64,000 nt of DNA from Candidatus Moraniibacteriota bacterium (GTDB lineage Bacteria > Patescibacteriota > Minisyncoccia > Moranbacterales > GCA-2747515), in contig CP065011.1 in assembly GCA_016699795.1 (NCBI GenBank), positions 687,318-751,317 of the forward strand, in the 5' to 3' direction. Shown here piece by piece: positions 14,006 to 62,989 of the stretch. The stretch's first letter is position 1. The number at the start of each line of letters is the position of its first letter. The translations under genes and the position numbers were made by a program. Below the pieces are notes generated by a model. It made no database searches. It was not told where the DNA came from and worked only from the letters and a program-made list of their open reading frames with translations.

Positions 14006-14022
14006 GAAAAAAAATGGATATT

Positions 14023-14050: not shown

Positions 14051-14078
14051 GAAGATATAATTTTGGAATAAAAATAGT

Positions 14079-14933
14079 ATGATAGAGAATGTTGCAGATA
14101 TGCTTGTGGAAGCTCGTCGGGAAAGATATGCTGTTGGGGCTTTTAATGTTATGAATTTAGAAACAACACACGCTGTTTTGTTGGCTGCAAAGAAAATAAG
14201 AGTCCCGGTCATTCTTCAGTTTACAGAAAGTACTATGAGGTATATTGGGGGGCGTGCAATTTTTTATACAATTAAAAATCTTAGTGAATGGTATTATCCT
14301 GATGTTCGAGTGGGTATCCATTTGGATCATGGAAAAAATATAAAAGTAATTCAACGATGTTTGGAAATGGGACTTCCCTCCGTTATGTTTGACGGGTCTC
14401 GAAGAGACTATGAAGAGAATATTCGCCTTACTGCTGAAGTTGTTCGTATGGGACATAATCGAGGAGCCTCTGTTCAAGGAGAACTCGGTTCAGTTCCTTA
14501 TTCTAGTGAAATGAAAGATATTGAAATAGATTGGGATAAATATATGACAGATCCTGATCAGGCGAGAGACTTTGTGGCAAGAACGGGAGTAAATACTCTT
14601 GCCGTTGCTATTGGGAATGCTCATGGATTGGCTAGAGAACGAGTAACGCCTGATTATGATCGATTAAGTCGTATCGTTGAAAAAATAAATATTCCTATTG
14701 TTATGCACGGCGCTTCTGATTGGGAAAAAGATCGTGTTCACGAAGTCGTTTCTCGAGGAGTTTCTTGTTTTAATGTGGATACTAACTCTAGAGTAGCTTT
14801 TGCAGGGAGTCTTTCTCGGGCATTTCAAAAAGAAATAAAATTAAATACGGACTTGCGTCAAATCCTTGGAGATGCTCGAGACACCATGCAAGAAGCTGTT
14901 GAGAAAAAAATGCGAATGTTTTCTATGGAATAA
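14079..14933 (+). CDS. fba: class II fructose-bisphosphate aldolase
   Basis: N-terminal FbaA-type motif, GIHLDHG zinc site, characteristic class II FBA length. Confidence 0.85.
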   Translation: MIENVADMLVEARRERYAVGAFNVMNLETTHAVLLAAKKIRVPVILQFTESTMRYIGGRAIFYTIKNLSEWYYPDVRVGIHLDHGKNIKVIQRCLEMGLPSVMFDGSRRDYEENIRLTAEVVRMGHNRGASVQGELGSVPYSSEMKDIEIDWDKYMTDPDQARDFVARTGVNTLAVAIGNAHGLARERVTPDYDRLSRIVEKINIPIVMHGASDWEKDRVHEVVSRGVSCFNVDTNSRVAFAGSLSRAFQKEIKLNTDLRQILGDARDTMQEAVEKKMRMFSME

Positions 14934-34969: not shown

Positions 34970-37900
34970 TTGGGAAATCACAACATGGGTATGGCTATTG
35001 AAAATGAAAATGAAAAGGGTGCGGAACAATTGGAAAAACAACAAAAACAGTTTAATGATAGAATAGTTACAGTAAGAAATTCCATACGAAATAAATTGCA
35101 AGAGACGCGAAAAAAAGAGGGTTTGGAAGAAGGAAATAATTCAGTCGAAAGAGAAAATCCATGGAAGCTTCTTTTTAATGATATAAACTATCATCAAGGA
35201 ATGTCTTCTCTTACAGAAGAACTGGTAATGGATTTTGAAAAAAGATTTCAGGAGCTTTCGGATAATTCTGTTGGAATGAAAAATGAAGCAACTTCGGAAA
35301 ATACAAAAGAAAAAATAGCAAATGATTTTTCTAAAGAGATTCAAGAAATGGAAGTATTGGATGTAAAACTCCAAGAAAAACAACGTAGTTTGGATGATAT
35401 TGATGAACAAATCGAAGAACTTCTTGGTCAGGGTAAAAATATTCAGTTGGATATAGATCAATTGGAAGAAAGAATGGGGACTATTCCGGAAAAAGAATGG
35501 TTTGAGGCTTTAAGAGATGTGGAAAATATAAATCATGATATAAAAACAAAACATAGAAGAAAAAGTGAAATTGAAAAAGAAGTAAATACTTTGCATTCGC
35601 AAGTTTTGGAACGTTTTGAAAAAATTCCCGAAGAAAAAAAACAAGAACTGAAATTGAGAGAAAGTCTTTTTTCTATAAGGATTTTTGGTGAGCATAAAGA
35701 GAAGAAAGTAAATAAAAATGAAGATATGGAGAATTTTTTGAGAGAAAAAGGTGAGCAATTACCCTCCGGGGAGTCTCAAAAAAAACAGGTGAATGAAAAA
35801 AGTAATCCTCAAGAGGAGGAAATAGTTCTTTCTTCTCATGATACGCAAGAAGGAAAGAAACATGAAGAACTTCGAGAAAAGATGAGTGATGCAATGCAGG
35901 AATTGGCGAAGAAAAAAACTGAAAGAGAGAGGTTTGTGGAGGAGAAACGAGAACTTGAAGATAGGAGTAGAAAATATGGCATAGAATTGAATGAAGATTT
36001 TGATAATATTGAAAAACAAATTGAAATAATTGAAAAAGATATACAAAAGCAAGAAGAGTTTGTGCAGGTGATGCAGAAAGAATTTGAAGGGGGTTTTGTG
36101 AATAATTCTGGAGGCACCCCGAATGATTTTGAAAAAGAAACTCTCTCACAGTCTTCAGGTGAAACTGAAAAAACACAAGAGGAAGAAAAAGAAAGTAAAG
36201 AAAGTGAAATTCTTGAGGGAGAGTATATTCCCAAAAACAAAGTTTCAGGGAGTTCGGAAAGAGAAGAGCGGGTTGTTATTAACGGTGAATACTCGAGAGT
36301 GGACGATAAAGAAGAAACAAACTCTTCGCAAAAATCCGAAAAAGGCGAGCAGCGTTTTTCTCCAGAAGAATTTTCAAATCGAAAACAACGTATAGAGGAT
36401 ATTCAAAAGAAAATTGATGGCTATGAGGAAGAGAAGAATAAATTACAAAAAGAATTAAATCTTTTGGGAGGTGAGCAAAAAGAAATCGAAGCAGAATTAA
36501 GTTCCTTGGAAGGGGGGATGAAACAAGAGGAGCGAGGCGGAAAGACTGTCTATAGAGGAACGCTTTCAGTGGGAGAGATTGAAGAATTAAAAAAGAGAAG
36601 AGATGAAAATAATCGAAAAATACAAGAAAAAAAGGCGTCTATAGAGGTAATTCAAATATCCATCCAAAATGCACAAGATGAACAAAAAGCTCTAAAAGAA
36701 AAGTTTATTGCGGATTTTGATATGTACGCGGGTAGAGTTTCTCCGGGGGAAGAAGCTCAGACATTACTTGATTTTTTTGAAGATGCGGAGAGATACCGGA
36801 AAGAACTTGATGGTTCTTTAGATATTTTGCCTAAGAATGTTTCTGAAAATAAGGAGGGACCATCAGAAAAAACAGAAGAAAAACCTCTTTCTGCTACGGA
36901 CGAAAAAAAGAACTCTGAGAAGGGGGATGAAGAAGGTGAATTTTTGCGAAAACTTACGAAGGATTTGGAAGATGCTCGAGAGGCATTTGCTTTGGATATG
37001 AAAAATCCCGAGAAGAAAAAAAAGTATGATGAATATTTGCAAAACTACAATAGCGAAGTGGCGAAAAGATTTTCGGATTATATGGAAGCGAAAGAATTTG
37101 AACAGATGATGCGTGCCAACGAAATAGGTGAACAAATAAAAATAAAAGAAGCGATAGCGGACGATCGATTGAAGGATGTTTCTTTTATGGGCAAGGCAAA
37201 AAATATGTTTATGAGTGGGATAGAGAAGTATCAAAAACTTCCATTCAAACAAAAAATTGCTCTTAGTGTTGGACTTATAGGTGCCGGAGCTTTAGGAGGT
37301 GCTGCTGTGGGTGCGACAGCAATAGGCATGACTGCTGCCGGACTTGGAATGCGAGCCCTTTCTTTTACATCGTCTTCTGTGGGTTTCAATACTTTTTTTA
37401 AGGATATTTCCGAAAAACTTTATAGTGGTGCAGATAGAGAAAGGGTTGATAATGCAAGAGATTCTTTCGGTGAAATTTATGGGAAAAAAAGTGAATTCTA
37501 TAAAGAAAATCCTTTAGAAAAAGCGAAATATATTCAGAATTTGTTGGGACAATCTTCTTCTCAAATTGCGGATCGAATAGAAAAAAGAAATTATCGAGAT
37601 AAATATTTACGATGGACAGGGTCGGTAGGATCCGCTCTTGCTTTAACTATGGCGTCTCGATGTTTGGGAGAAGCTGCTGCAAGTAAAATTGGAGAATGGT
37701 TTTCAGACGCGCCTACTTTAAAAATTTCCCCTGAATATATCCAAACGCCACCATCAGATCCTATTACAGGGGGTGGAATGGCGTTGGATGATGCATCTTG
37801 GAATAATGATTCAGATTTTCCAAATGGGGGTGATGATGGAGGACAAAGCTCGTTTACACCAGAAACTTCGCAGGGAGTTTCTTCGGAAACTATTCCTGGA

Positions 37901-39799
37901 GGGGGAGTTTCTTTAGATGAATCATCATGGGAGCAAAATCTTTCGGACAAGAGTCCTGATATGGAGAAGACATTTGAAACTGTTGAAATGAAAATGTCTC
38001 CTGAAGAATATGCGAAGGCACATCCAGAACTTTTTAAATCTTTGGAAGGACGTGTTTGGATGGATAATGATACTCAATTAAGAGTTGGTACTGATGGTAT
38101 GATAACGGGTGCTGATAGGAATGAATTAAGTCTTCGTTGGGGAGGTGGCGGTGATGGCGTAGACGCTCGAGGCAATTATGTTTTTAGTGTGGCTAAAATG
38201 ACTTCTGATGGTTCTTTTCATAAAGGATTGTCTGAAGATGCAATCAAGGCTATACAAAGTGGAGAATTAAAAATGATTTTTACTTTAAATGAAAACCTTC
38301 AGGGACAATATATAGAAGTTCCTGTAGAATCTAATGGAAACATTATAATTGATCCTCAATCTTCTGCAGGAAAAATATTATTTTCTCAAAATGGAGGAAG
38401 ATCTGTTTTCCTTGGACATACAGCAGAAGTTGGTATTTTTGGAGACGACGGAAAATTCACCGTTCTCGCAACTCATAAAGGAAACGGTTTGGAATCTATT
38501 ATGGAGAGCGTGCAGAATGAAATTCCTGAGGAAGTTACTTCGAATATTACTACAGAAACAGCTCTTCCTGAGGACTTGTCTATAAAACCATCTCCTGAAA
38601 TTCCTGAAAAAATGCATTTTGAGGAGTCAAGATTTTTTGGAGAAGATATGCAACATAGGGTAAAAAGTGGTGATCGAATATGGAATATTTTAGGAGAAAG
38701 GACAGAGAACTTTTTTTCAGATCGTCCAGATATTTCCTCTGAACAAAGGAAAATATTCATAGATTCTTTGAAAGATTCCTTAGAAAATATGAAGCCTGAG
38801 GAATTAAAAGCAGGAGGAATATCGAGTGGAAATATTGATAGAATTTTTGCAGGTCGCGATACTATTGATTTTTCAAAACTTCTCGATGATGAGGATTATC
38901 TTCGCGCCATAAAACAATCAGGTATTACTTTGGAGGCGCAAGAAACTATGGCAAGTGAAATACCTTCCCAAATAGAAGTAACTCCTGAGATAACGGAAGC
39001 ACCTGCCACGTCGTCAGAAGAAGTTTTACAAGCGCAACCAGAAATGGTTACAGAAGAATTTCCTTCAGAAACAGCCACAGAGGAAGTTCTTGAAACAGCG
39101 GAAGAAACAATCCCACAAGACGTAGAAACTTCTCCAATTCCAGAAACTTTACCAAAAGAAGAAATTCCTTCAGAAACAGATATAGAGGAAATTCTTGAGA
39201 CAGTGGAAGAAACAACTCCACAAGACGTAGAAACTTCTCCAATTCCAGAAACCTTACCAACACCAGAAATTCTTTCAATTGGAGAAAGTCGTCCTTTTGG
39301 AGAGTTAATCGGGGAGGGTCCTATTACGGAGCAAGGACTTAAGTCTTTGGGTTCTGTGGGAGAGGATATTTGGAAATATGTGAGCACTTCTTTGGAAAGA
39401 AATTATCTAGATGTACAAAACTCTACAATACAAGACACATTAAAGGCATTAGAAGTACAGAGACTTTCTGATGGTAGTATCTCTCTTGTTTCAGAAGGAG
39501 AGACGTCTTTTCTGGAAGTTATGAGAGAATTTCCCAAAGATGCTCTTGCTTTTGATAGATATGAAGAATTTTTTGATTCTATTTCAGATAAGGATAGAAA
39601 TGATATTTCCCTTATAGTGGAACAGAATATAAATGATCCTTCAAAATTTGAAAAAAATCTAAGAAGCATATTCTCTTTTAATGGAGTTTCAGAGAATAAA
39701 ATTGAAGAATTATTAAGATCAAGAATTGGTGAAAGTAGAGAACAATTTTTCCAAAGAACAGTAACTCAAATAGCTATGCTTAAAAATATTAGTAAATAA
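34970..39799 (+). CDS. giant (1609 aa) hypothetical protein: N-terminal acidic coiled-coil (~750 aa), Gly/Ala-rich TM segment, Gly/Asp-rich middle, C-terminal tandem PETLP repeats
   Basis: Continuous ORF; KIALSVGLIGAGALGGAAVGATAIGMTAAGLGMRALSF hydrophobic segment; EEVLETAEETIPQDVETSPIPETLP repeated twice near C-terminus. Confidence 0.6.
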   Translation: MGNHNMGMAIENENEKGAEQLEKQQKQFNDRIVTVRNSIRNKLQETRKKEGLEEGNNSVERENPWKLLFNDINYHQGMSSLTEELVMDFEKRFQELSDNSVGMKNEATSENTKEKIANDFSKEIQEMEVLDVKLQEKQRSLDDIDEQIEELLGQGKNIQLDIDQLEERMGTIPEKEWFEALRDVENINHDIKTKHRRKSEIEKEVNTLHSQVLERFEKIPEEKKQELKLRESLFSIRIFGEHKEKKVNKNEDMENFLREKGEQLPSGESQKKQVNEKSNPQEEEIVLSSHDTQEGKKHEELREKMSDAMQELAKKKTERERFVEEKRELEDRSRKYGIELNEDFDNIEKQIEIIEKDIQKQEEFVQVMQKEFEGGFVNNSGGTPNDFEKETLSQSSGETEKTQEEEKESKESEILEGEYIPKNKVSGSSEREERVVINGEYSRVDDKEETNSSQKSEKGEQRFSPEEFSNRKQRIEDIQKKIDGYEEEKNKLQKELNLLGGEQKEIEAELSSLEGGMKQEERGGKTVYRGTLSVGEIEELKKRRDENNRKIQEKKASIEVIQISIQNAQDEQKALKEKFIADFDMYAGRVSPGEEAQTLLDFFEDAERYRKELDGSLDILPKNVSENKEGPSEKTEEKPLSATDEKKNSEKGDEEGEFLRKLTKDLEDAREAFALDMKNPEKKKKYDEYLQNYNSEVAKRFSDYMEAKEFEQMMRANEIGEQIKIKEAIADDRLKDVSFMGKAKNMFMSGIEKYQKLPFKQKIALSVGLIGAGALGGAAVGATAIGMTAAGLGMRALSFTSSSVGFNTFFKDISEKLYSGADRERVDNARDSFGEIYGKKSEFYKENPLEKAKYIQNLLGQSSSQIADRIEKRNYRDKYLRWTGSVGSALALTMASRCLGEAAASKIGEWFSDAPTLKISPEYIQTPPSDPITGGGMALDDASWNNDSDFPNGGDDGGQSSFTPETSQGVSSETIPGGGVSLDESSWEQNLSDKSPDMEKTFETVEMKMSPEEYAKAHPELFKSLEGRVWMDNDTQLRVGTDGMITGADRNELSLRWGGGGDGVDARGNYVFSVAKMTSDGSFHKGLSEDAIKAIQSGELKMIFTLNENLQGQYIEVPVESNGNIIIDPQSSAGKILFSQNGGRSVFLGHTAEVGIFGDDGKFTVLATHKGNGLESIMESVQNEIPEEVTSNITTETALPEDLSIKPSPEIPEKMHFEESRFFGEDMQHRVKSGDRIWNILGERTENFFSDRPDISSEQRKIFIDSLKDSLENMKPEELKAGGISSGNIDRIFAGRDTIDFSKLLDDEDYLRAIKQSGITLEAQETMASEIPSQIEVTPEITEAPATSSEEVLQAQPEMVTEEFPSETATEEVLETAEETIPQDVETSPIPETLPKEEIPSETDIEEILETVEETTPQDVETSPIPETLPTPEILSIGESRPFGELIGEGPITEQGLKSLGSVGEDIWKYVSTSLERNYLDVQNSTIQDTLKALEVQRLSDGSISLVSEGETSFLEVMREFPKDALAFDRYEEFFDSISDKDRNDISLIVEQNINDPSKFEKNLRSIFSFNGVSENKIEELLRSRIGESREQFFQRTVTQIAMLKNISK

Positions 39800-39811
39800 A
39801 AACAATTTTTT

Positions 39812-40168
39812 ATGAATGAAATCATGACTTTTCCTTTGGAGGAAGAAACAAAAAAAGATATTCTTCGAGATCTCGGTGTAGAAAATATACCTCAAGAAAA
39901 ACAAGAAGAAATACTCTCAGGGATCGGAGAACTTCTTTTAAAAGAGATTTTCTTGGCGACGATAGATCGTCTGTCAAAGGAGCAGCAAGATGAATACGAA
40001 GAATTACTTTCCAAAGAAGTCTCTCCTGAAGAGGTTGAAAATTTTTTGAAAAATGCTATTCCTGATTATGAAATGGTTGTAGCTACTGTAACAAAAGATC
40101 TCATGGAAGATCTAAAGAAAGATGCGGGTGAAAATATTTCAGAGGAAATGAAAAACCTTGAAGAATAA
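39812..40168 (+). CDS. small acidic hypothetical protein (118 aa)
   Basis: Tightly spaced after giant ORF (12-nt gap), same strand; highly acidic, helical. Confidence 0.45.
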   Translation: MNEIMTFPLEEETKKDILRDLGVENIPQEKQEEILSGIGELLLKEIFLATIDRLSKEQQDEYEELLSKEVSPEEVENFLKNAIPDYEMVVATVTKDLMEDLKKDAGENISEEMKNLEE

Positions 40169-40249
40169 TTTTTCTAGAAATATTACTTATTTTGGTGTAT
40201 AGTGAAAAATAGATGAGAGTTGTTTTTTAATGAGAAATAGAATAATCAT

Positions 40250-40693
40250 ATGGCAGTAACACCTTATAATTTAGAACCGATAGAAGATGATTTGAAAATA
40301 AAAAATGAGTCTGTTTTGGAAAAAAAAGAAAATGAAGAAGAAAAAGAGATACTACCCGCAGCAGAAACGCTTGTTGAATCGGAAAATCCTTCTTTAAAAG
40401 AAGCGTCTTTTGAAAAGTTTTTGGAGAAAACAAAAATGCAAATAAGTGATCAAATGAATGCTTCTGAACAAGTTCATGCAAAAGAAAATGCGCATGTAGA
40501 TGAATTATTGGAAACGGATATTGCTACACGAATAACAAAACTTATCGCTGTAGCAGAAGAGCAAGGTATTACGCAGGCTTTTGAAATAGCATTAAAATTT
40601 GATGATCTTTATACTATTGATACATTGCACGATACTCTGTCTGGCTCTTTGTATGAAGAGCTAAAGAAAAAAGGTTTGATACACGAAGAATGA
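40250..40693 (+). CDS. small acidic hypothetical protein (147 aa)
   Basis: Same strand, acidic, no motif recognised. Confidence 0.45.
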   Translation: MAVTPYNLEPIEDDLKIKNESVLEKKENEEEKEILPAAETLVESENPSLKEASFEKFLEKTKMQISDQMNASEQVHAKENAHVDELLETDIATRITKLIAVAEEQGITQAFEIALKFDDLYTIDTLHDTLSGSLYEELKKKGLIHEE

Positions 40694-40757
40694 TGGTAGA
40701 ATAGAGGCTGAGAGTGGTTTCGAAAGAGGTGTTTAAGACAAAAACAAATGAAAAAAA

Positions 40758-43217
40758 ATGCAACAAGAAACTGTTAATATTATTTTCCTTTTTATTTCTA
40801 TAGCGTTAGGTCTTTTTGCTTTGGGAAGCGGTGCTTATATTATGTTGTCAGGACTATTTGGTCTCAAGAAAAAAATTGAGATGTCTTTGCAATTTAGTAC
40901 GGAATTAGTCCGGATGGTTTTAAATGATGTAAAGAGATCGGATGAACGAGAAGTGGGTCCTGAAAAATGGAGAGAAGAAATAGGTGCTATGGAACAACTT
41001 TTTTCTTCTTTCGCTAACATGCGTTCGAAGAGAGCTTTTCTTGGATCGTCTATACCTTTTATAATATCGTTAGAAATCGCCAATCCCTCTGATAGTGAAG
41101 AGATATTCTTTTATCTATCTTTTCCTCGAAAATATAGAGAGGATATCGAAAAACAAGTGCATAGCTTTTTTCCTCACGCATCTATTGAATCTATAGAAGA
41201 TTATACTATTTTTCGACCAAAGAGTTTTGTTGCCACAGCAACGTTGGCACTAAAATCAACCTCAGCATTGCCCGTACTTACATATCAAGAAATGAACACG
41301 GATCCTCTTAATGAGATAACTAATGCTATGAGCAAACTTCAGACTGAGACGGAAGGAGCTGCTTTGCAATTAATTTTATATCCAGCTGGAGGTTCTTGGC
41401 GAAATGAAGGACGAAGTATCGCTCATGAAATGCAACAAGGAAAACGATTAAAAGATGCAAGAAAACAATCTTTCCTTGCAAAATTAGGAGATGGATTAGG
41501 CTCAGTATTTCTGAGTGCTTTTTTGGGAAAAAAGATCGAATCTCAAAAAGATGATAAATATATACAACTCACTCCTGAAGAGCAGGATCTTGTAAAAGCT
41601 ATCGAACAAAAAACAAGGAAACCTGCTTTTTATACGAATATACGAATTCTTTCTTCTGGGGATACACAAGAAAGAGCGACACAAATTCTTTCTCAGATGG
41701 AAAATGCTTTCTCTCAATTTGAAAGATCGGATATTAACTTTTTTCGCATAAAAGAACGATCTGAAACAAAAAAAATTGGTTTTCAATACATAATGAGATT
41801 TTTTAATCGGCGGGGAGCTATGCTTCTTGGAGTTGAAGAGATTGCTAGTATTTACCATTTCCCCATATCATCTACGAAAACCCCGAAAATAAAATGGCTT
41901 AAGGCTGGAAGCGCACCTCCACCCACACTTATTCCTCGAGAGGGAATTTTATTAGGACATAATGATTATAGGAATGTCATAACGGATGTGAGGCTTTCTC
42001 AGGCTGACCGAAGGAGACATCTTTATGTCATAGGTCAAACTGGTGTTGGAAAATCTGTTTTTCTTACGGAGCTTATTAAACAAGACGTTCGAGAGGGCCG
42101 AGGCGTTTGCTATATCGATCCTCATGGAGATGCTATAGAAGAAATTCTTTCTGCTGTTCCTAAGGAGAGAATTGAAGATGTTATACATTTTGATCCTGCT
42201 GATACAGGGAGACCTTTCGGTCTTAATATGCTCGAATATGATAAACCTGAACAGAAGACATTTGTTATAAATGAGATGATTAATATTTTTGATAAATTGT
42301 ACGACCTACGTCAAACAGGAGGTCCAATGTTTGAGCAGTATATGAGAAACGCCATGCTTCTCATTATGGAGGATACTGAATCAGGATCGACACTTTTGGA
42401 AATTCCACGCGTTTTGTCTGACGAGCAATTTCGTCGCATGAAGCTTTCAAAATGTAACAATCCTATTGTAAAGAACTTCTGGATAAAGGAAGCAGAAAAG
42501 GCTGGTGGAGATGCAGCTTTAGCTAATGTTGTTCCTTATATAACTTCAAAATTGACACAATTTATTTCTAACGACATGATGCGCCCTATCATTTCACAGC
42601 AACGTTCCACTATTGATTTTCGAAAATGCATGGATGAAGAGAAGATACTTCTTATTAACCTATCAAAAGGAAGAATTGGAGAAATTAATAGTTATCTTTT
42701 AGGAATGATTATTGTTGGGAAAATTCTCATGGCTTCACTTTCTCGTGTTGATATATCTGAAAACGAACGAAAGGATTTTTATTTATACATCGACGAGTTT
42801 CAAAATGTTACAACAGATTCTATATCGCAAATTCTTTCAGAGGCAAGAAAATATCGATTAAGCTTGACCATCGCTCATCAATTTATAGGACAGCTTAGCG
42901 AGGGCATTTCTAAGGCAGTTTTTGGTAATGTGGGTTCAATGGCAGCATTTCGAGTTGGTCCGGAAGATGCAGAATTTTTAGAAAAACAGTTTGCTCCCAT
43001 ATTCTCAGCAAGCGATCTTCTTAATGTGGATAATTATAGTTGTTTTGTTCGTCTTCTGCTTAATAATGAATCAACGAAGCCTTTTAATATAAAAACATAC
43101 CCTTCAACTCAGGGAAATATAGATCAAGTTTCTTTAATAAAACAATATTCTCGCCTTCGATATGGGAGAGACGCTAAGATAATCGAAGAAGAAATACGAA
43201 ATCGTATTGTTATGTAA
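40758..43217 (+). CDS. membrane-anchored P-loop ATPase of the VirD4/TraD/TraG coupling-protein (AAA_10/DUF87-like) family
   Basis: N-terminal TM helices; Walker A GQTGVGKS, DPHGD motif (CYIDPHGDAIEEI), Walker B-like YLYIDEFQN, TIAHQ sensor; ~300-aa N-terminal domain of unknown function. Confidence 0.6.
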   Translation: MQQETVNIIFLFISIALGLFALGSGAYIMLSGLFGLKKKIEMSLQFSTELVRMVLNDVKRSDEREVGPEKWREEIGAMEQLFSSFANMRSKRAFLGSSIPFIISLEIANPSDSEEIFFYLSFPRKYREDIEKQVHSFFPHASIESIEDYTIFRPKSFVATATLALKSTSALPVLTYQEMNTDPLNEITNAMSKLQTETEGAALQLILYPAGGSWRNEGRSIAHEMQQGKRLKDARKQSFLAKLGDGLGSVFLSAFLGKKIESQKDDKYIQLTPEEQDLVKAIEQKTRKPAFYTNIRILSSGDTQERATQILSQMENAFSQFERSDINFFRIKERSETKKIGFQYIMRFFNRRGAMLLGVEEIASIYHFPISSTKTPKIKWLKAGSAPPPTLIPREGILLGHNDYRNVITDVRLSQADRRRHLYVIGQTGVGKSVFLTELIKQDVREGRGVCYIDPHGDAIEEILSAVPKERIEDVIHFDPADTGRPFGLNMLEYDKPEQKTFVINEMINIFDKLYDLRQTGGPMFEQYMRNAMLLIMEDTESGSTLLEIPRVLSDEQFRRMKLSKCNNPIVKNFWIKEAEKAGGDAALANVVPYITSKLTQFISNDMMRPIISQQRSTIDFRKCMDEEKILLINLSKGRIGEINSYLLGMIIVGKILMASLSRVDISENERKDFYLYIDEFQNVTTDSISQILSEARKYRLSLTIAHQFIGQLSEGISKAVFGNVGSMAAFRVGPEDAEFLEKQFAPIFSASDLLNVDNYSCFVRLLLNNESTKPFNIKTYPSTQGNIDQVSLIKQYSRLRYGRDAKIIEEEIRNRIVM

Positions 43218-43239
43218 TTTTATTTTTACAAGAATTCAG

Positions 43240-45630
43240 TTAAGGGAGAACTATTTTTAGTATATCTCCTGAAGTATTTTCTGTATAAATGGTATTTTCT
43301 TGGACTGCGAGTATTCGCTTTGTTTGAAAAAAAGATTTACTCATAAGCTGAGATTGTATTTCTCCGGTATCTTTTTTTGTGAGAACAAAACGACCATTTT
43401 CAGAATCAAGAATGAGAAAATTATTCTTTGTTATAGCAATATCTTTTGGATGAGGGGTGGGGGCTGAAGATGATTCTAAAGAAAAATTGGTTTTCTTTCC
43501 TTGAAAGTAAGATTCAATAGTTTCTTTATGGGTTATAAAATAGATACTTTCTTCCACATTCCACTTGAAGGGATTTTCTTGTATAGGTGTAGATTTGAAC
43601 CAAGTTGTGGATTTATCAAAACCTCCTGCTATACGAGGAAAACGAAGAATATTTTTGGTCTTAGTATCAAAGATGTACAGATAAGTAAGGTAGGACTCTA
43701 ATAGATGAGGACTTGTTCCTGATGGAAGTGGTATTTTGTTTTTTGTATAAGATTGTTTTGCAGGACTAAATTCATACAAATCATTATTTTTAGTAAGAAT
43801 AAAAAGAAGATTAAGATCTTCCATAAAAGTTGCAAGTGTAAATATTTCATTTCCATTGGGAGGAGGGTAAGATTCCATGGAATTATTTAAAAGGTTGAGA
43901 ATGACAACGGCATCAGAGGTGACAGCGAGAATCCGATTGTCCCAATACGTTACTTGTAATGTTTTATTTAAAATACTCGGAGGAATTCCTGAAATTGTTT
44001 CTATAGCATCTTCTTTTTGAAAAATAACATTTTTTTCTTTTTCCCATTGTTCTGTCCAAGTATCAGGAGACTCTTTTTGGTTTAAAACAAGAGCTGCTTC
44101 ATCAAATTCAGAAGATATATTTTCTTTTTTGTCGGGTATTATTTTAGGGAGAAAGAAGGGGATAAGAATCATTATTAAAAGAAGAAAAAGAGCGTAAATT
44201 TTTTGGCGTTTGTTTAAAGAGAAAAAAAGATGTTTTATTTTATAAAAACTTGGAAGAAACGTTGATTTTGAAGAAATTTCTAATGGTGAATGAATCGTAT
44301 CCTTCTTGTTTTTCAAAAAGAATAATTTCTCTTTTAAAAACAAGAGAATATTTTTTCTTATTTTTATTTTCTCCAAGAGATTTCTTGTTGAGGTCAAGAG
44401 AAGGGTAATGTTTTTTTTGGAAAAAGTTTTTTTATTTGTTAAAAAAAAATCTTTTATCTTTTTTTTTACGTTAGAAAAATCTCTCTTTTTAGATTTTTTA
44501 TCTTTTTTTTTAGAAGTGAAAGACTGAGCCTTCTTTTGAAGAATTTTTTGAATTTTTTTTGTTGCGTTTGTTAAAAGAGACTCGATTGTTTCCAAAGTAA
44601 GGAGCGCTCGTTCTTTCAGTGCTTCTATATGAGGATCTGAACCTGAATGTGTTTGTGAATCAAGAGATTCTTTTATGTGAATATTTCTTCCTTTACTTTT
44701 CTCTTCGGGTAAATTTTCTATCTGTGTAGAGATTTCTTCCTCTTTGTTTTCATTTTCTTCTAACAGGGAGTCTTTTAGAATTTCTTTAGAAAGAGCTTTT
44801 TTTAGGGATATATTTTTTTGCGTATCTAAGGTGTCTCTACCAAATAAATTTCTTGGCAAAATGAGATCATGAGAAGTTTTTGTATGAACTATGGGCGATG
44901 GTGTGTCATCTTGGATCATATCAAGAAGTATGGCTCCAGCGTGTTCGCATTCATTTACAAGGGCTGTATAAAGAAGGGTATAAAATGAATCATAATCTGG
45001 AGAACGTGAAATCTCTTTTTTGAGTTGTTCAGGAGAAAAAATCTTAAGAAGCTGACGATCACAGAGAAGAAAAATATCATGAGAAAGAATTTTTCCTGAA
45101 GCTATATCTTCAAATGTTCTCAGTGGATGGGGGGCACTCTCTTCTTCATTGGATTCTGTAAGATTAAGGAATTTGTTTTCTCGAAAAAGGAAAAGACGAC
45201 CTTTTCCACAAGAAGAAAAATGAATAGTATCCTTACTAATAACAACAATCACGCCATCAAGATTTTCTAGCCAAGAAACATTACCCTTGCGAAATGTTTC
45301 TCCAAGAATAATATCAATTATTTTTAGAGTTGATTCAAAACTGTCTTCAGCTGAACGTTGAGGTTTTGAATAATATTCTTTTTTTACAACTGAAGCTAAA
45401 TGATTTGTTATATAGAGAGCCTCTTTCTTTGAAGGATCTATTGAGAAAATACCAAAAATAGTCCCTAAATGTTTTTGAGTTATATTATTGGGAGAAAATT
45501 GAAAAACATCGAGAAAAGGTTCTCGTTTTTCCTGAGAAATAGTGATGGGTCGCAAACGAGGAATCATGCAAGTTAAGCATTTTCCCGAATCGCATTTTTT
45601 CTTTACCATACTGTTTTTAAAGTATAACAT
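43240..45630 (-). CDS. large hypothetical membrane protein (796 aa): cytoplasmic N-domain (possible degenerate PP2C/SpoIIE-like fold), basic linker, one TM helix, extracellular C-domain
   Basis: Pattern GIFSID..VVISKDTIHFSSCGKGRLFLFRENK..SHDIFLLCDRQLLK loosely resembles PP2C-like fold; TM IYALFLLLIMILIPFFLP. Confidence 0.4.
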   Translation of the reverse strand: MLYFKNSMVKKKCDSGKCLTCMIPRLRPITISQEKREPFLDVFQFSPNNITQKHLGTIFGIFSIDPSKKEALYITNHLASVVKKEYYSKPQRSAEDSFESTLKIIDIILGETFRKGNVSWLENLDGVIVVISKDTIHFSSCGKGRLFLFRENKFLNLTESNEEESAPHPLRTFEDIASGKILSHDIFLLCDRQLLKIFSPEQLKKEISRSPDYDSFYTLLYTALVNECEHAGAILLDMIQDDTPSPIVHTKTSHDLILPRNLFGRDTLDTQKNISLKKALSKEILKDSLLEENENKEEEISTQIENLPEEKSKGRNIHIKESLDSQTHSGSDPHIEALKERALLTLETIESLLTNATKKIQKILQKKAQSFTSKKKDKKSKKRDFSNVKKKIKDFFLTNKKTFSKKNITLLLTSTRNLLEKIKIRKNILLFLKEKLFFLKNKKDTIHSPLEISSKSTFLPSFYKIKHLFFSLNKRQKIYALFLLLIMILIPFFLPKIIPDKKENISSEFDEAALVLNQKESPDTWTEQWEKEKNVIFQKEDAIETISGIPPSILNKTLQVTYWDNRILAVTSDAVVILNLLNNSMESYPPPNGNEIFTLATFMEDLNLLFILTKNNDLYEFSPAKQSYTKNKIPLPSGTSPHLLESYLTYLYIFDTKTKNILRFPRIAGGFDKSTTWFKSTPIQENPFKWNVEESIYFITHKETIESYFQGKKTNFSLESSSAPTPHPKDIAITKNNFLILDSENGRFVLTKKDTGEIQSQLMSKSFFQTKRILAVQENTIYTENTSGDILKIVLP

Positions 45631-45724: not shown

Positions 45725-46339
45725 ATGGCAACGACAATTGATATTTTTGATGAATTGTTTGGATCAAAAGAAAAAGCGAGACTTATTCGTTTTTTTCTTT
45801 TCAATGAAAACCCAAATTTATCGGTAATAGAATTGGCTCAAAAAAATAAGCTGAAATTGGATGAAACTCGTAAAGCAATACGGTCATTGGTAAAAATTGA
45901 TATGCTTCGGGAGCAGATAAAAAAACGTCGAAAAGTATTTTCTCTCAATGAAAACTTTCCTTATAACGCACAATTGCATAATTTAATTTCTGCCTCAAAC
46001 ACTTTCGGACAATGCAAAAATCTTTCACGTCTTCGTAGATCAGCAGCGGTGAGATATGCTGCAGTAAGTGGATTATTTACGGATAACCCTAAATCTATTG
46101 TTGATCTTCTTGTTGTGGTAAGTGATTCTCGTCGTGCCAAGGTTCAACAAGCTATTGAATTTATTGAAGCGGAAGTTGGAAAAGAGATTCGTTATGTTCT
46201 TCTGGATGTAGAGGAATTTAAGTATCGAATGGAAATGCTTGATCGTTTTCTTAAGGATTTTTTCGAAGGAAAGCATGAAGAAATCGTAAATAAAATGCCA
46301 GGCCTTTCTCGAAACATACAATTATTGCAACAGAAATAA
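45725..46339 (+). CDS. hypothetical protein (possible wHTH plus minimal nucleotidyltransferase-like core)
   Basis: ORF only; weak GS..D.L.VVVSD pattern. Confidence 0.35.
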   Translation: MATTIDIFDELFGSKEKARLIRFFLFNENPNLSVIELAQKNKLKLDETRKAIRSLVKIDMLREQIKKRRKVFSLNENFPYNAQLHNLISASNTFGQCKNLSRLRRSAAVRYAAVSGLFTDNPKSIVDLLVVVSDSRRAKVQQAIEFIEAEVGKEIRYVLLDVEEFKYRMEMLDRFLKDFFEGKHEEIVNKMPGLSRNIQLLQQK

Positions 46340-58755: not shown

Positions 58756-60009
58756 ATGGATGAAGAAATTAAACAACAACAAGTATTTAATAAAGGATCT
58801 TTTCTTTTTTCTATTGTTCTTTCGATTCTTTCTGGTATATTGGGCGGTGTTTTCGTTTTACTTTTGGCAAATCCTATAGTAACAAAAGAATCTTTAGAGA
58901 AATCTCCTTTGGAGAATAATAAAGAAATGGAATCATCTAAAACTACGGTTATCGCTGAAGATGATGCTATTATTCAAGTAGTTGAAAAAGTTTCTCCTAG
59001 TGTTGTGAGTATTGTAGTTACGAAAGATCTCTCCCAAATGCAAAGATATTTCAGTAGTCCTTTTGATATGTTTTTTGGAGGAGATCCTTATGCACAAAAA
59101 AATGAAGAAGGTCCTTCCGAAATGCAACAAATAGGAGGCGGTACAGGATTTTTTGTCTCTTCTGAAGGTATGGTGGTAACCAATGCTCATGTAGTTGAAG
59201 ATACATCAGCAACATACACCGTAGTGACACAATCAGGCGATAAATACGAAGCCAAAATATTGGCTACGGATCCTACTCGAGATGTAGCAGTTATTAAAGT
59301 AGAAGGAACAAATTTTCCTGTAGCGGAATTGGGAGATAGTGAAGCTCTTCGTTTAGGTCAAACTGTTGTTGCTATTGGATATTCTCTTGGGGAATTCGCT
59401 AATTCAGTAAGTAAAGGTATTATTTCGGGAACACAAAGAAGTATTTTCGCTGGGTCTTCTCGCGGACAATCAGAACAGCTTAGCAATGTTATTCAGACCG
59501 ATGCCGCAATCAATCCAGGAAATTCCGGAGGACCTCTTTTGAATATTCAGGGGAAAGTTATAGGTGTTAATGTCGCTATGGCACAAGGCGCTGAGAATAT
59601 AGGATTTGCCCTTCCTATTAATTCTGTGCGAAAAGTTATAGATCAAGTTCGTGAAACCGGAAAAATTGTAACACCATTTCTGGGTATTCGTTATCTCATT
59701 ATCAATGAAGAAATTGCCAAAAAAAATAATCTTGAATATAACTATGGAGCGCTTATTATGAGAGGGGAACAACGGTCTGATTTGGCTGTAATGCCTGCTT
59801 CTCCTGCTGATCGCGCAGGTCTTAAAGAAGGGGATGTTATTTTGGAAATTGCGGGTGAGAAAATTACTGAAGAAAAACCTCTAAATTTTCTTATTTCAGA
59901 ACATAGCATTGGAGAAGAAGTAGCTTTTAAAGTTTGGAGCGATGGAGAGATAAAAGATATGACCATTCTCCTTGAAGCTCGAAAAGAAGATACAAAAGAG
60001 AAAAAATAA
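58756..60009 (+). CDS. htrA: HtrA/DegP-family serine protease with PDZ domain
   Basis: TNAHVV (His), D, GNSGGPL (Ser) catalytic triad motifs; C-terminal PDZ. Confidence 0.9.
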   Translation: MDEEIKQQQVFNKGSFLFSIVLSILSGILGGVFVLLLANPIVTKESLEKSPLENNKEMESSKTTVIAEDDAIIQVVEKVSPSVVSIVVTKDLSQMQRYFSSPFDMFFGGDPYAQKNEEGPSEMQQIGGGTGFFVSSEGMVVTNAHVVEDTSATYTVVTQSGDKYEAKILATDPTRDVAVIKVEGTNFPVAELGDSEALRLGQTVVAIGYSLGEFANSVSKGIISGTQRSIFAGSSRGQSEQLSNVIQTDAAINPGNSGGPLLNIQGKVIGVNVAMAQGAENIGFALPINSVRKVIDQVRETGKIVTPFLGIRYLIINEEIAKKNNLEYNYGALIMRGEQRSDLAVMPASPADRAGLKEGDVILEIAGEKITEEKPLNFLISEHSIGEEVAFKVWSDGEIKDMTILLEARKEDTKEKK

Positions 60010-60016
60010 AATAAAT

Positions 60017-60514
60017 ATGGAAGATATAATTGGAAGCCTCCCGTCTTTTTCCGAGTTTCTTACGGGGGATGTTGTCTTGTTCCTTGTTGTTATCGGTGGT
60101 GCTATTGCTTTGAGTATAATTTTTGGAAAGTCTCGCTTTGTTCGTTTTGTGTTGTCTATTTATTTGGCATATGCCTTTTTGGCAGTCTTTCCAAAATCTA
60201 TTCTTATTAAAATTCCTTATGGAGAAGCTCTTATTTTTTTAGGAGCACTTATTCTTCTTGTTTTTTTGGGAAAAAATCTTTTTAACATTTACTATCGTTC
60301 TGAAATTCAGGGATGGATACCCACCTTTTTCTTTGCCTTCTTTGTTTCGGGCTTTCTTTTGGGTATTTTTTTCCGTCTTCTTCCCGGGGATGCCTTCTTT
60401 TGGGATTTCCTATCCTATCGATCAGCTCAATATCTTATTGGTGAATGGACCTTTCTTATTTGGTTTATTGCTCCTTTGATTATTTTAACAATACTTAATA
60501 CGAGAAAATCTTAA
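60017..60514 (+). CDS. small polytopic membrane protein (CvpA-like?)
   Basis: Four TM segments; start set at Met 60017 just after htrA stop. Confidence 0.45.
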   Translation: MEDIIGSLPSFSEFLTGDVVLFLVVIGGAIALSIIFGKSRFVRFVLSIYLAYAFLAVFPKSILIKIPYGEALIFLGALILLVFLGKNLFNIYYRSEIQGWIPTFFFAFFVSGFLLGIFFRLLPGDAFFWDFLSYRSAQYLIGEWTFLIWFIAPLIILTILNTRKS

Positions 60515-60541
60515 TAAAAACTCCTATAAAAAGAGTAGGGT

Positions 60542-60570
60542 TTGACTTAGGTTAATTTCTTCGATATAAT
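60542..60570 (+). promoter_or_regulatory. canonical sigma70 promoter TTGACT-17-TATAAT for tRNA-Lys
   Basis: TTGACT 60542-60547, 17-nt spacer, TATAAT 60565-60570, 24 nt upstream of tRNA. Confidence 0.6.
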
Positions 60571-60594
60571 CGCATACGTATTTTTAGAATTTTT

Positions 60595-60667
60595 GCGCGC
60601 ATAGCTCAGTCGGTAGAGCAGTGGCCTTTTAAGCCAACGGTCGGGGGTTCGAATCCCTCTGCGCGCA
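60595..60667 (+). tRNA. tRNA-Lys (anticodon UUU)
   Basis: Acceptor GCGCGCA/TGCGCGC, D-arm GCTCAGTCGGTAGAGC, anticodon loop CTTTTAA, T-arm GGGGG-TTCGAAT-CCCTC; resembles E. coli tRNA-Lys. Confidence 0.9.
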
Positions 60668-60893
60668 CGAAGTAAGCGCTAAGCATGCAAACTGCTTTGC
60701 ATGCGTGAGGGATGAGAAAGACGGAACGATGTTTCGCATATGTATGTATGCGAAACCGTGAGTCGGGGTCGAGAAATATTTTCTTAAAATATATTCGTGA
60801 CCGAATCCCTCTGCGCGCACGAAGTAAGCGCTAAGCATGCAAACTGCTTTGCATGCGTGAGGGATGAGAAAGACGGAACGATGTTTCGCATGT
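60651..60893 (+). repeat. tandem direct duplication (~90 bp, period 152) containing the last 17 nt of tRNA-Lys plus downstream hairpins
   Basis: gaatccctctgcgcgcacgaagtaagcgctaagcatgcaaactgctttgcatgcgtgagggatgagaaagacggaacgatgtttcgcat occurs at 60651 and again at 60803. Confidence 0.85.
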
Positions 60894-60916
60894 ATGCGAA
60901 ATTTTTTTTGTTTTTT
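60884..60916 (+). terminator. rho-independent terminator at end of second repeat copy
   Basis: TTTCGCAT-GT-ATGCGAAA hairpin followed by TTTTTTTTGTTTTTT. Confidence 0.6.
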
Positions 60917-60980
60917 CCTTCGTACTCAACCTTTTCCCCTGCGAAGGCGGGGAATTATTTGATTCTTTTTCCTTTCCCGT

Positions 60981-61048
60981 CCTTTCGATCGACAAGTCTT
61001 CGAGGAGTGGAGACTTAGTCCGCCTTTGGCGGAAAACTTTCCGGATTT
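60981..61048 (+). repeat. structured repeat family B, copy 1
   Basis: cgacaagtcttcgaggagtggagacttagtccgcctttggcggaaaac ~85% identical to 62560-62630; contains hairpins AAGTCT..AGACTT and TCCGCC-TTTG-GCGGA. Confidence 0.7.
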
Positions 61049-61067
61049 CCTTTTCGTTGTTCGGATT

Positions 61068-61107
61068 CCTCCCCCTTAGAAAAAGGGGGATTGAGGGGGA
61101 TTTTTTT
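61068..61107 (+). terminator. G/C hairpin plus T-run (CCCCCTT-AGAAA-AAGGGGG ..GGGGGATTTTTTT)
   Basis: Inverted repeat followed by 7-T run. Confidence 0.35.
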
Positions 61108-61124
61108 CCGTCTTTGTGAGCATA

Positions 61125-61182
61125 GCGAAGTAATCCAGAAATTCAGATGGACCGCCACGTCGCGGACTCCTCGCGGAGACGG
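61125..61182 (+). repeat. structured repeat family A, copy 1 (core AATCCAGAAATTC.GATGGACCGCCACG-var-CTCGCGGAGACGG)
   Basis: Shares >85% core identity with copies at 61219, 61385, 62761, 62864. Confidence 0.75.
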
Positions 61183-61218
61183 AAAAAGAGTCATTGCGAG
61201 GAGGAGTCTTCGAGTGAA

Positions 61219-61274
61219 GTGGCAATCCAGAAATTCGGATGGACCGCCACGTCGAGGACTCCTCGCGGAATCGG
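61219..61274 (+). repeat. repeat family A, copy 2
   Basis: ggcAATCCAGAAATTCGGATGGACCGCCACGtcgaggactCCTCGCGGAATCGG. Confidence 0.75.
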
Positions 61275-61285
61275 AGATCCAGCAT

Positions 61286-61314
61286 TTCACAAAAAACACA
61301 AAATATTCTATACT
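61286..61314 (+). promoter_or_regulatory. strong sigma70-like promoter TTCACA-17-TATACT (copy 1 of duplicated promoter)
   Basis: Near-consensus -35/-10 with 17-nt spacer; identical architecture duplicated 171 bp downstream. Confidence 0.5.
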
Positions 61315-61384
61315 AAAAAAAGAAAAGAGAGATTTCCATCAAAGGCGAGATGAAACAATCCATTGATCCGTCTTTGCGAGTGTA

Positions 61385-61444
61385 GCGAAGCAATCCAGGA
61401 ATTTCGGATGGACCGCCACGGCTGAGTACAGCCTCGCGGAATCG
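61385..61444 (+). repeat. repeat family A, copy 3 (variable segment forms GGCTG-AGTA-CAGCC hairpin)
   Basis: gcgaagcAATCCAGGAATTTCGGATGGACCGCCACGgctgagtacagcCTCGCGGAATCG. Confidence 0.75.
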
Positions 61445-61456
61445 AAGATCCAGTAT

Positions 61457-61485
61457 TTCACAAAAAACACAAAACATCCTATACT
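61457..61485 (+). promoter_or_regulatory. strong sigma70-like promoter TTCACA-17-TATACT (copy 2), ~60 nt upstream of DUF1566 gene
   Basis: TTCACA 61457-61462, TATACT 61480-61485. Confidence 0.55.
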
Positions 61486-61548
61486 AAAAAAAGAAAAAAG
61501 ATTATTTCACAAACAAAAAAAAGAACATTTATTATACAATAAAATAGT

Positions 61549-62520
61549 ATGATGTTTACGAAAAAAAATACTCCCCCCAAACTACAAAGAACTCTTGATG
61601 GAATACGAAAAGAAAAAAACAATACTTATTCTATAAAAGAAAAAAAAGAAATCTCTCTTTCTTCTTTTTTTTCTTTCCTCTCCAAAAAAAGAAAACTCAC
61701 TTCTACTTTCCTCTTAACCATTCTTATCTTAGGAGGAGTCTCTTTTTTCTTTTCAAAAAATATAAAAGGAGCAACGTATGGATGGATTCAAAGTAGTTGG
61801 ATAGGAGGAGTAACAGTAAATACTGCTACACATACCAATAATCAAGAAAACTGGACGGAGTATGCTTCCAAAGATTCTAATATTCAAGCAGATGCAAGTG
61901 GTGTAACGATTACGGGGACGAATAATAGTTGGGTAGAGACGAGTGATGCGGACTTTAACGATGGATCATTTGCCCAAACCTATACAACGGGAAATGCTAT
62001 TTATACCCAAAAACCTTTTGGTGCTACTTGCACTACGAATGCACAATGCTCTAATGGAGGGGATGAGGGAACTACTGGGGGACTCTGCTCAGGAGGAATA
62101 TGTACCGATCCCTGGCAGACAGGACCATGTGCTGGTATCTATGTTCATGCCTACAATGCATCGGGAACGTATATGTGGAAAACAACACAAACTAACTGTG
62201 ATACTCCTCAGTGCGGACTCAATGGAGGACAAAATGATGATAATCTCGTCGCCGATAATTCCGTAGATTTCTCACTGTACCCTGCGCGAAATGCATGTAA
62301 GAATATGGGAGAAGGAGGAAGGCTTCCTACTCTTTTAGAGTTTCAGTGTATTTATACCAACCGAGCTGTTTATGATGACTATGGTGGACTTTCGACTTAT
62401 CATTGGTTAAACACAGAAAATTCTACTACGTACGCACACTATTTTGACAGTACTGTTGCTCGTGGAGGAGTTTATCATAAGACGAACAGCTATTCCGTCA
62501 GGTGTGTTCGTGGACAATGA
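61549..62520 (+). CDS. secreted DUF1566 / Lcl C-terminal (Fibrobacter major paralogous, C-type-lectin-fold) domain protein with Cys/Gly-rich middle
   Basis: N-terminal TM/signal anchor; C-terminus GGRLPTLLEF..YHWLNTE..YSVRCVRGQ matches DUF1566 hallmarks (RLPT..EL and terminal VRCVR). Confidence 0.65.
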   Translation: MMFTKKNTPPKLQRTLDGIRKEKNNTYSIKEKKEISLSSFFSFLSKKRKLTSTFLLTILILGGVSFFFSKNIKGATYGWIQSSWIGGVTVNTATHTNNQENWTEYASKDSNIQADASGVTITGTNNSWVETSDADFNDGSFAQTYTTGNAIYTQKPFGATCTTNAQCSNGGDEGTTGGLCSGGICTDPWQTGPCAGIYVHAYNASGTYMWKTTQTNCDTPQCGLNGGQNDDNLVADNSVDFSLYPARNACKNMGEGGRLPTLLEFQCIYTNRAVYDDYGGLSTYHWLNTENSTTYAHYFDSTVARGGVYHKTNSYSVRCVRGQ

Positions 62521-62559
62521 TCCCCTCTCTTTTTTTCGACCGACAAACTTTCTTCCCTT

Positions 62560-62630
62560 CGTCTTTTCGACCGACGAGTCTTCGAGGAGTGGAGATTTGG
62601 TCCGCCTTTAGCGAAAAACTCTCAGGATTT
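62560..62630 (+). repeat. structured repeat family B, copy 2
   Basis: cgaccgacgagtcttcgaggagtggagatttggtccgcctttagcgaaaaac; partial third copy ttcgaccgacaaac at 62536. Confidence 0.7.
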
Positions 62631-62760
62631 TTTTCTTTTTCCCCGTGAAGACGGGGATCCAGTATTAAAGGAGTACAGAAGAGAAATTTCTCCACTCGTT
62701 CGCGCTGCTCACTCGGTCGAAAAGACGGAAATCCGAGTCATTGCGATCCCGCCGTGGCGG

Positions 62761-62828
62761 GAGAAGCAATCCAGGAATTCGGATGGACCGCCACGCTTTC
62801 TCGAAGACTCGAAATCTCGCGGAGACGG
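62761..62828 (+). repeat. repeat family A, copy 4
   Basis: gagaagcAATCCAGGAATTCGGATGGACCGCCACGctttctcgaagactcgaaatCTCGCGGAGACGG. Confidence 0.75.
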
Positions 62829-62863
62829 AAAATGCGTCATTGCGAGGAGCGAGTCCGCGAAGT

Positions 62864-62919
62864 GACGAAGCAATCCAGAGTTAATTTCTGGACCGCTTCG
62901 CAGAGCCTCGCGGAGACGG
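62864..62919 (+). repeat. repeat family A, copy 5 (diverged core)
   Basis: gacgaagcAATCCAGagttaatttcTGGACCGCttcgcagagcCTCGCGGAGACGG. Confidence 0.6.
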
Positions 62920-62989
62920 AGTTGAAGATATGTAAAGATGACAAAAAACTTTGGAAATATTCTTTTTTCTATGGTATGCTGTATCTTGT

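Follow-up and report, generated by a model that had tools for sequence, protein, structure and literature searches.

The window analysed here is a 64,000-nucleotide (nt) stretch from a Candidatus Moraniibacteriota bacterium (GenBank assembly GCA_016699795.1, contig CP065011.1, positions 687,318 to 751,317 of the forward strand), and our subject is a block of genes within it that is built around a P-loop ATPase carrying an N-terminal DUF8128 domain. Four co-directional genes, separated by gaps of 12, 81 and 64 nt, encode in order a very large acidic membrane protein (hereafter the giant protein), a small acidic DUF5663 protein, a second small acidic protein of 147 amino acids (aa), and the ATPase; a fifth gene, for a 796-aa protein with a single transmembrane (TM) helix, lies on the opposite strand with its stop codon 22 nt from that of the ATPase (Table 1). 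These five open reading frames (ORFs), their spacing and the convergent orientation of the fifth are as described in the original prediction, which had been made from the sequence alone, and the word "divergent" in its title, at odds with its own text, has to be corrected. No Rfam family and no tRNA was found within the block, and a scan for promoters and terminators returned counts that were not informatively above those in shuffled sequences.

Table 1. The ATPase block and its parts, in window coordinates.
Feature	Position (nt)	Strand	Residues	Remarks
Giant acidic membrane protein, ORF	34970-39799	+	1609 aa	
Giant protein, N-terminal ~750 aa	34970-37219	+		very acidic, without signal peptide, segmental heptad periodicity (composition, hydropathy)
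Giant protein, conserved membrane core	37040-37744	+	aa 691-925	iterative search
Giant protein, variable acidic C-terminal ~680 aa	37745-39799	+		
Giant gene, tandem repeat	39052-39277	+		105 nt (35 aa, Glu/Thr/Pro-rich) x 2.2; Tandem Repeats Finder score 354, 88% matches
DUF5663 small acidic protein	39812-40168	+	118 aa	net charge -20; Pfam PF18908
Small acidic all-alpha protein, putative new family	40250-40693	+	147 aa	
147-aa protein, conserved core	40532-40690	+	aa 95-147	alignment
DUF8128 / VirD4-VirB4-like P-loop ATPase	40758-43217	+	819 aa	
ATPase, N-terminal TM helix	40779-40865	+	aa 8-36	hydropathy 2.33; AlphaFold2 helix 4-44
ATPase, N-terminal alpha/beta domain PF26449 (DUF8128)	40890-41942	+	~aa 45-395	recorded Pfam; confident in AlphaFold2 model
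ATPase, motor domain	41943-43217	+	aa 396-819	
Walker A, GQTGVGKS	42033-42056	+	aa 426-433	
DPHGD	42117-42131	+	aa 454-458	
All-alpha insertion in motor domain	42246-42593	+	~aa 497-612	
Walker B, LYIDEFQN	42783-42806	+	aa 676-683	
TIAHQ	42867-42881	+	aa 704-708	
Single-TM protein, convergent with ATPase	43240-45630	-	796 aa	

The block was compared with 80 loci fetched at one genome per species and with eight more retrieved by exact-protein look-ups. The fetched loci carry the labels of Moran-, Uhr-, Falkow-, Komeili-, Nomura-, Zambryski-, Staskawicz- and Doudnabacteria and of Paceibacterota, several of the taxon labels of metagenome-assembled genomes looking unreliable ('Bdellovibrionales' and 'Gammaproteobacteria', for example). 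Genes in these loci are our own ORF calls, made with six-frame checks, and the locus designated L085 is the closest relative of that in the window.

The ATPase has the P-loop domain typical of type IV coupling proteins (T4CPs), with Walker A, DPxGD, Walker B and Q motifs and an all-alpha domain placed within the nucleotide-binding domain, and the hallmarks for which it had been likened to these proteins (TM anchor, Walker A, DPHGD and TIAHQ) could all be located. Its DUF8128 domain, the assignment of which comes, here and in the listed homologues, from recorded Pfam annotation and not from our local Pfam scan, contains four invariant residues (E106, P172, Q204 and K285). Weak above-cutoff Pfam matches were obtained to TrwB_AAD_bind (24.8 bits against a cutoff of 20.5) and to DUF87, and there was no match to CagE_TrbE_VirB, the N-terminal domain of VirB4; the NCBIfam TraD/VirD4 models all stayed below threshold (SXT_TraD 43 against 366, conj_TOL_TraD 35.8 against 647, and conju_CD1115 29.6 against 250 bits). 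Searched against the PDB, a profile of 40 family members retrieved TrwB (4e-8), DotL (1.3e-5) and HerA (8e-3), and did not detect FtsK. The AlphaFold2 model of the ATPase is confident (pLDDT 87.6), and has the fold of a VirB4-type C-terminal ATPase domain; Foldseek placed the full-length VirB4 protein TrwK first, over ~900 columns at a TM-score of 0.25-0.33, and TrwB next, the Cagbeta-CagZ structure 8dol also being among the matches. Together, the sequence and fold results point to a motor of the VirD4/VirB4 lineage with an extra N-terminal domain, which judged by sequence is closer to T4CPs, the fold alone favouring neither the VirB4 nor the VirD4 subfamily. These tests set the ATPase apart from the FtsK and HerA housekeeping enzymes. 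Grouping of the ATPase with FtsK or HerA, beside neighbours that are not co-conserved, had been named as the result that would tell against the original prediction; instead, T4CPs are the nearer relatives and the neighbours are co-conserved.

An exhaustive search showed the ATPase family to comprise 5785 clusters at 50% identity (E<1e-30), mostly matched over the full length. The ATPase is more than 60% identical across Moranbacteria, and 86% identical between the window and L085, where the neighbouring P-type ATPase is 75% identical. Four homologues of 1770-2006 aa (P0179, P0182, P0190 and P0196) bear Pro/Ala-rich C-terminal tails of ~1000-1200 aa that are apparently disordered and contain no Pfam domain.

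Among the 72 loci that could be assessed for a 147-aa homologue, whether separate or fused, 25 carry it as a separate, co-directional gene directly upstream of the ATPase gene, and another 29 have it as residues ~10-140 of an ATPase enlarged to 910-970 aa. Fusion correlates perfectly with loss of the N-terminal TM helix, which is absent from all 29 fused ATPases and present in 21 of the 22 with a separate 147-aa gene and in all 11 of a third class, termed type C and described below. This pattern of fusion and fission marks the 147-aa protein as a cytoplasmic and dedicated module of the ATPase. The protein belongs to a new family and is to the motor either a cognate partner or a detachable N-terminal domain. 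Its members were recovered from the fetched loci, a word-indexed search with the 147-aa protein having returned two proteins only, and share a conserved C-terminal region of ~55 aa with the motif KG[IV]xxA..DPY[IV]LDxFHDxL. The domain is helical in the predicted model of a fused homologue. No relative of the family was found in Pfam, NCBIfam or the PDB, a PDB profile search included, and hhalign detected no relationship between it and DUF5663.

In the type C loci (L019-L022, L024, L026, L029, L030, L068, L072 and L073), which belong to Uhr-, Falkow- and Komeili-type lineages, a different gene abuts that of the TM-anchored DUF8128 ATPase upstream, usually at a gap of at most 6 nt, and takes the place of the 147-aa gene. 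It encodes a protein of 150-190 aa with a disordered N-terminus and the conserved C-terminal motif WLxxIPGVNKFFxEQEAKIKTDKI. We considered these proteins as possible members of the 147-aa family and found them not to be homologous.

The fused, TM-less form of the ATPase also occurs amid housekeeping genes. In Paceibacteria (L046, positions 5838-14633), its gene is part of the cluster secY-adk-map-[~205 aa unknown]-ATPase-ndk-RNase J-like, which forms the tail of the ribosomal-protein superoperon. The TM-less fusions and the secY-adk-map context point to a core cellular role rather than to a device for host attack or conjugation. The same gene sizes as in the L046 cluster are seen in L034, L035, L052 and L081.

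The giant protein probably starts at the ATG at position 34985, which gives 1604 aa, because its closest homologue begins MGIENE. It has a net charge of -121. Its N-terminal ~750 aa are presumed to be cytoplasmic. A crude heptad test scored 79 windows in the protein against 7.4 +/- 8.0 in shuffles, with coiled-coil-like stretches at aa 107-219, 323-380, 466-500 and 533-582; the ~750-aa acidic coiled coil that had been proposed is therefore acidic as stated, but is broken into four segments rather than forming one continuous coil. The Gly/Ala-rich membrane segment was found where hydrophobicity places it, at aa 759-806, and forms the hydrophobic hairpin of a membrane core (aa 691-925), to which a pre-TM helix, a Lys/Arg-rich loop and a weak third TM segment at ~886-911 also belong. 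This core is the sole part of the giant protein that is conserved in its positional counterparts, the large proteins of ten Moran-type loci. With the whole-length protein, phmmer and jackhmmer retrieved no homologue beyond the nearest relatives; the core alone works as a seed, an iterative search recovering L085, L084, L018, L090, L007, L005, L006, L014, L004 and L089. The C-terminal ~680 aa are presumed to be extracytoplasmic: hydropathy and the positive-inside rule would leave the N-terminus in the cytoplasm and put aa 912-1609 outside. What had been called a C-terminal surface-repeat region does contain a repeat, although it amounts to just 2.2 copies of a 35-aa unit, together with two short copies of GGG[MV][AS]LD[DE][AS]SW.

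The giant protein has no match in Pfam, NCBIfam or PADLOC, and searching its segments against Pfam at E values up to 10 gave none either. A LysM-like motif, HRVKSGDRIW, at aa 1229 was likewise not detected by Pfam and is an unconfirmed impression. In L085 the positional counterpart of the giant protein has 1579 aa and matches it at 65% identity, against 86% for the ATPases of the two loci; identity falls to 44% at the tip, the most divergent part, and the repeat region does not align. By these comparisons the giant protein evolves fast. Large proteins of the same architecture abut the ATPase in two unrelated loci, L039 and L056. In L084 (positions 4691-9101), the ATPase of which is 75% identical to that of the window, the giant gene was called as two overlapping ORFs of 575 and 906 aa, the split sitting in the loop past the Gly/Ala hairpin and being either real or a frameshift in the long-read assembly.

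The 118-aa product of the second gene matches PF18908 (DUF5663) at 26.6 bits, above the cutoff of 23.7, with an E value of 9.3e-6 and over 82 of the 84 profile positions; no relative other than DUF5663 itself was found in the PDB or Pfam. When searches were seeded with DUF5663, a DUF8128 ATPase was found within 3 kb in all six independently seeded long contigs, which come from at least three to four lineages, and the DUF5663 gene usually follows that of a large acidic membrane protein. The order of the genes varies. Moran-type loci have the large gene, DUF5663, the small gene and the ATPase; in Minisyncoccales the ATPase is followed by a 463-490-aa acidic protein with two TM segments, both ends of which are apparently cytoplasmic by hydropathy, then by DUF5663 and by a protein of ~113 aa with a weak 147-like motif and weak similarity to the 147-aa family; and L091 shows the order 927 aa, DUF5663, 58 aa, 560 aa (with two Gly/Ala TMs), 142 aa and ATPase. 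Such permutation across lineages argues against mere inherited synteny. The grouping of these genes is above chance, the partners recurring with the ATPase across lineages in varied orders and fusions.

The convergent 796-aa gene behaves differently from the four that precede it. Its homologues were found only in Moran-type loci, always paired with the gene for a 204-aa protein, and L003, L007 and every other lineage sampled lack them; in L005, L008 and L084, the gene is set apart from the ATPase by the insertion of others. Of the five-gene block originally proposed, the four co-directional genes are a recurrent set, and the fifth, conserved beside them only in the Moran-type lineage, is probably a lineage-specific neighbour and not a component of the module. 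The 796-aa protein has no match in Pfam, NCBIfam or PADLOC, nor did searches of its segments against Pfam at E up to 10 or of the PDB by sequence return any; a PP2C-like look of its N-terminus is an unconfirmed impression. The 204-aa protein (window 45725-46339, + strand), always divergent from the 796-aa gene in Moran-type loci, has a PADLOC match to PDC-M05A, a candidate defence family (E 3e-14), and none in Pfam or NCBIfam; its conservation is unusual, with 91% identity in the closest relative, above the value for the ATPase.

VirB4- and VirB6-like partners of a type IV secretion system (T4SS) had been named as something to look for elsewhere in the genome. No VirB4, VirB6, VirB8 or relaxase gene was found by Pfam in the 64-kb window, nor among the recorded Pfam hits of nine related loci; in the same set the ATPase lacks both the VirB3, VirB6 and VirB8 neighbours expected of a VirB4 and the association with T4SS channel or relaxase genes expected of a T4CP. 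A VirB2/TrbC-like pilin gene reported in the window is confirmed in its identity (positions 4755-5231, + strand; Pfam T4SS_pilin, 27.3 bits against a cutoff of 26.6); it stands alone between GH130 and rhodanese genes with no other T4SS gene nearby, 30 kb from the block, and no link between the two is demonstrable. The ATPase family and the orphan VirD4-like ATPases of Patescibacteria are already known, and it has been suggested that the latter were 'exapted for other functions' (PMC12102498). In reviews, the T4SS of the candidate phyla radiation (CPR) is described as being of unknown function. Neither DUF8128 nor DUF5663 was found mentioned in the literature searched, and the partner set, the alternation between fusion and TM helix, and the housekeeping context appear to be undescribed.

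Given the recurrence of the four genes in reshuffled and fused forms, and with no known secretion system adjoining them, they probably encode an undescribed membrane machine. We hold with about even confidence that the four genes form a conserved, chromosomally inherited, four-part CPR module that is unlinked to any T4SS cluster. On this reading the motor is a ring-type P-loop ATPase of the VirD4/VirB4 lineage with an N-terminal DUF8128 domain, tethered in this organism by a single TM helix, and the acidic, helical 147-aa protein is its detachable N-terminal module, fused elsewhere in place of that helix. To these the giant protein would add the conserved Gly/Ala-rich core within the membrane, a long acidic arm in the cytoplasm and an outer part that evolves fast, with DUF5663 as the small partner of the large membrane protein. 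In the mechanism that we infer, the 147-aa module may dock the ATPase onto the cytoplasmic face of the large membrane protein, the Gly/Ala-rich helices of which could oligomerise into a conduit, and ATP hydrolysis might serve to feed in or pull on a polymer (either nucleic acid or protein) at the membrane core or through it. By analogy with IcmS/IcmW for DotL and CagZ for Cagbeta, the small acidic proteins may act as adaptors or regulators. A bolder version, which we regard as doubtful, would make the DUF8128 ATPases a third, CPR-specific branch of the VirB4/VirD4 motors that, together with a Gly/Ala-zipper membrane protein and two dedicated small acidic subunits, forms a self-sufficient minimal translocon, not dependent on the canonical T4SS, in the monoderm envelope of CPR bacteria. 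Such a translocon might serve traffic of nucleic acid or protein between the epibiont and either its surroundings or its host.

Several observations weigh against a four-part membrane module. DUF5663 was detectable within 10 kb of the ATPase in just 10 of the 80 genome-scan loci, and the large partner adjoins the ATPase in a minority of lineages; with both so rare near the ATPase, the 'module' may be two looser pairs, one made of the small 147-aa protein and the ATPase and the other of the big protein and DUF5663. The topology of the giant protein comes from hydropathy and the positive-inside rule only, and the large proteins outside the Moran type share its architecture with no detectable sequence homology. 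The eleven type C loci have an unrelated small protein upstream. The T4CP homologue of S. epibionticum, the one species open to genetics, has been reported to be non-essential (PMC12102498). Finally, the TM-less fused ATPases show that membrane anchoring is dispensable, which suits a soluble DNA- or protein-handling enzyme no less than a translocon. We give a low probability to the reading in which the ATPase and the 147-aa domain make up a housekeeping motor of the FtsK/HerA kind that translocates or processes DNA during chromosome segregation, repair or uptake, and in which the neighbouring giant protein and DUF5663 are unrelated to it. Neither FtsK nor HerA was the best match in the profile searches described above.

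It is common for T4CPs to act together with small proteins that are acidic or helical, as in DotL-IcmSW, Cagbeta-CagZ and TraD-TraM. Together with the T4CPs being the nearest sequence relatives of the ATPase, the VirB2-like pilin gene in the same window and the presence of 8dol among the fold matches, this lends some credit to the proposal that the ATPase is a genuine T4CP of the chromosomal Patescibacteria T4SS, its VirB4 locus lying elsewhere, typically near dnaA, with the small proteins as substrate adaptors and the giant protein in an accessory or cargo-related part. We nonetheless consider it unlikely, since none of the 29 fused relatives has a TM anchor, T4SS genes are missing from the window and from the nine related loci with annotation, the family is embedded in housekeeping clusters, and the scores fall far below the curated TraD/VirD4 equivalog cutoffs. 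Published counts bear on both sides: T4CP genes are often far from virB4, but 5713 VirD4-like homologues were found in 2918 Patescibacteria genomes, or about two per genome, with 148 of them near virB4, and the T4CP homologue was non-essential where the T4SS was essential (PMC12102498). Export and assembly of the giant protein itself, in the manner of EssC/EccC of the type VII secretion system (T7SS) and its small helical substrates, would have the ATPase thread through the membrane the C-terminal region, which lacks a signal peptide, with the small acidic proteins as chaperones. It seems improbable to us: DUF5663 has no tryptophan and hence no WXG motif, in many genomes the ATPase occurs without a large protein beside it, the large partner in Minisyncoccales apparently keeps both ends in the cytoplasm, and no homology to T7SS membrane components was found. 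An anti-phage defence system based on a HerA/DptH-like ATPase was rejected as highly improbable. The PADLOC matches of the ATPase (mad8 and HerA) cover the generic P-loop core only; PADLOC returned nothing for the giant protein or the two small ones, no defence system was matched with its complete protein set, and there is no nuclease, Sir2 or methylase partner. Unlike patchy defence islands, moreover, the family is near-universal, vertically conserved and found in housekeeping clusters.

The remaining ORFs of at least 110 aa in the window are, by Pfam, those of an ordinary chromosome, among them genes for TGT, PriA, a ClpB-like protein, aldolase, GAPDH, transketolase, MnmA, RF, LepA, HtrA and a glycosyltransferase. 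Two tandem GH130 genes (mannoside phosphorylase-like, ~640 aa each) occupy positions 807-4703 (+ strand), and in the first of them the domain is confined to the C-terminal half, the N-terminal ~300 aa having no assignment. At the right end of the window (60001-64000), past a tRNA-Lys gene at 60595-60668, the G+C content climbs from ~0.33 to 0.39-0.45, and the ORFs at 61549-62520 and 62881-63285 have no Pfam match; raised G+C and unmatched ORFs beside a tRNA gene could mark a foreign insert.

Patescibacteria are unable to make nucleotides, lipids and most amino acids, and it is still being asked by what route they acquire macromolecules. The analysis adds to the parts list a cognate 147-aa domain that alternates with a TM anchor, DUF5663, and a large protein with a conserved Gly/Ala-rich core. 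Should the module be an autonomous translocon, it would represent a new membrane machine across a large fraction of bacterial diversity; should the ATPase be the T4CP of an essential CPR T4SS, the small proteins would be candidate substrate adaptors.

Among systems already described, HerA, FtsK and EccC-EssC have the lower sequence support (HerA 8e-3), and the block holds no HAS-barrel, NurA partner, FtsK gamma domain or WXG100 substrate paired with an FtsK-like multi-domain ATPase. Relative to VirB4/TrwK, the low global TM-score leaves the equivalence of the N-terminal domains unproven, and profiles favour T4CPs. From the T4CPs (TrwB of R388, VirD4, TraD, DotL/IcmO and Cagbeta), the ATPase differs by its extra ~350-aa N-terminal DUF8128 domain, by having one TM helix in the window, and none in the fused forms, where T4CPs usually have two, by standing apart from T4SS and relaxase genes, and by being encoded by a chromosomal, vertically inherited gene that is far more conserved than plasmid T4CPs. 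The 147-aa and DUF5663 proteins, like the T4CP adaptors and regulators (IcmS/IcmW/LvgA on DotL, CagZ on Cagbeta and TraM on TraD), are small proteins of ~100-200 aa that are acidic or helical, have their genes next to that of the ATPase and seem dedicated to it; there is no sequence similarity between the two sets, and the adaptor-like domain of the present system is found at the N-terminus, where it alternates with the TM anchor.

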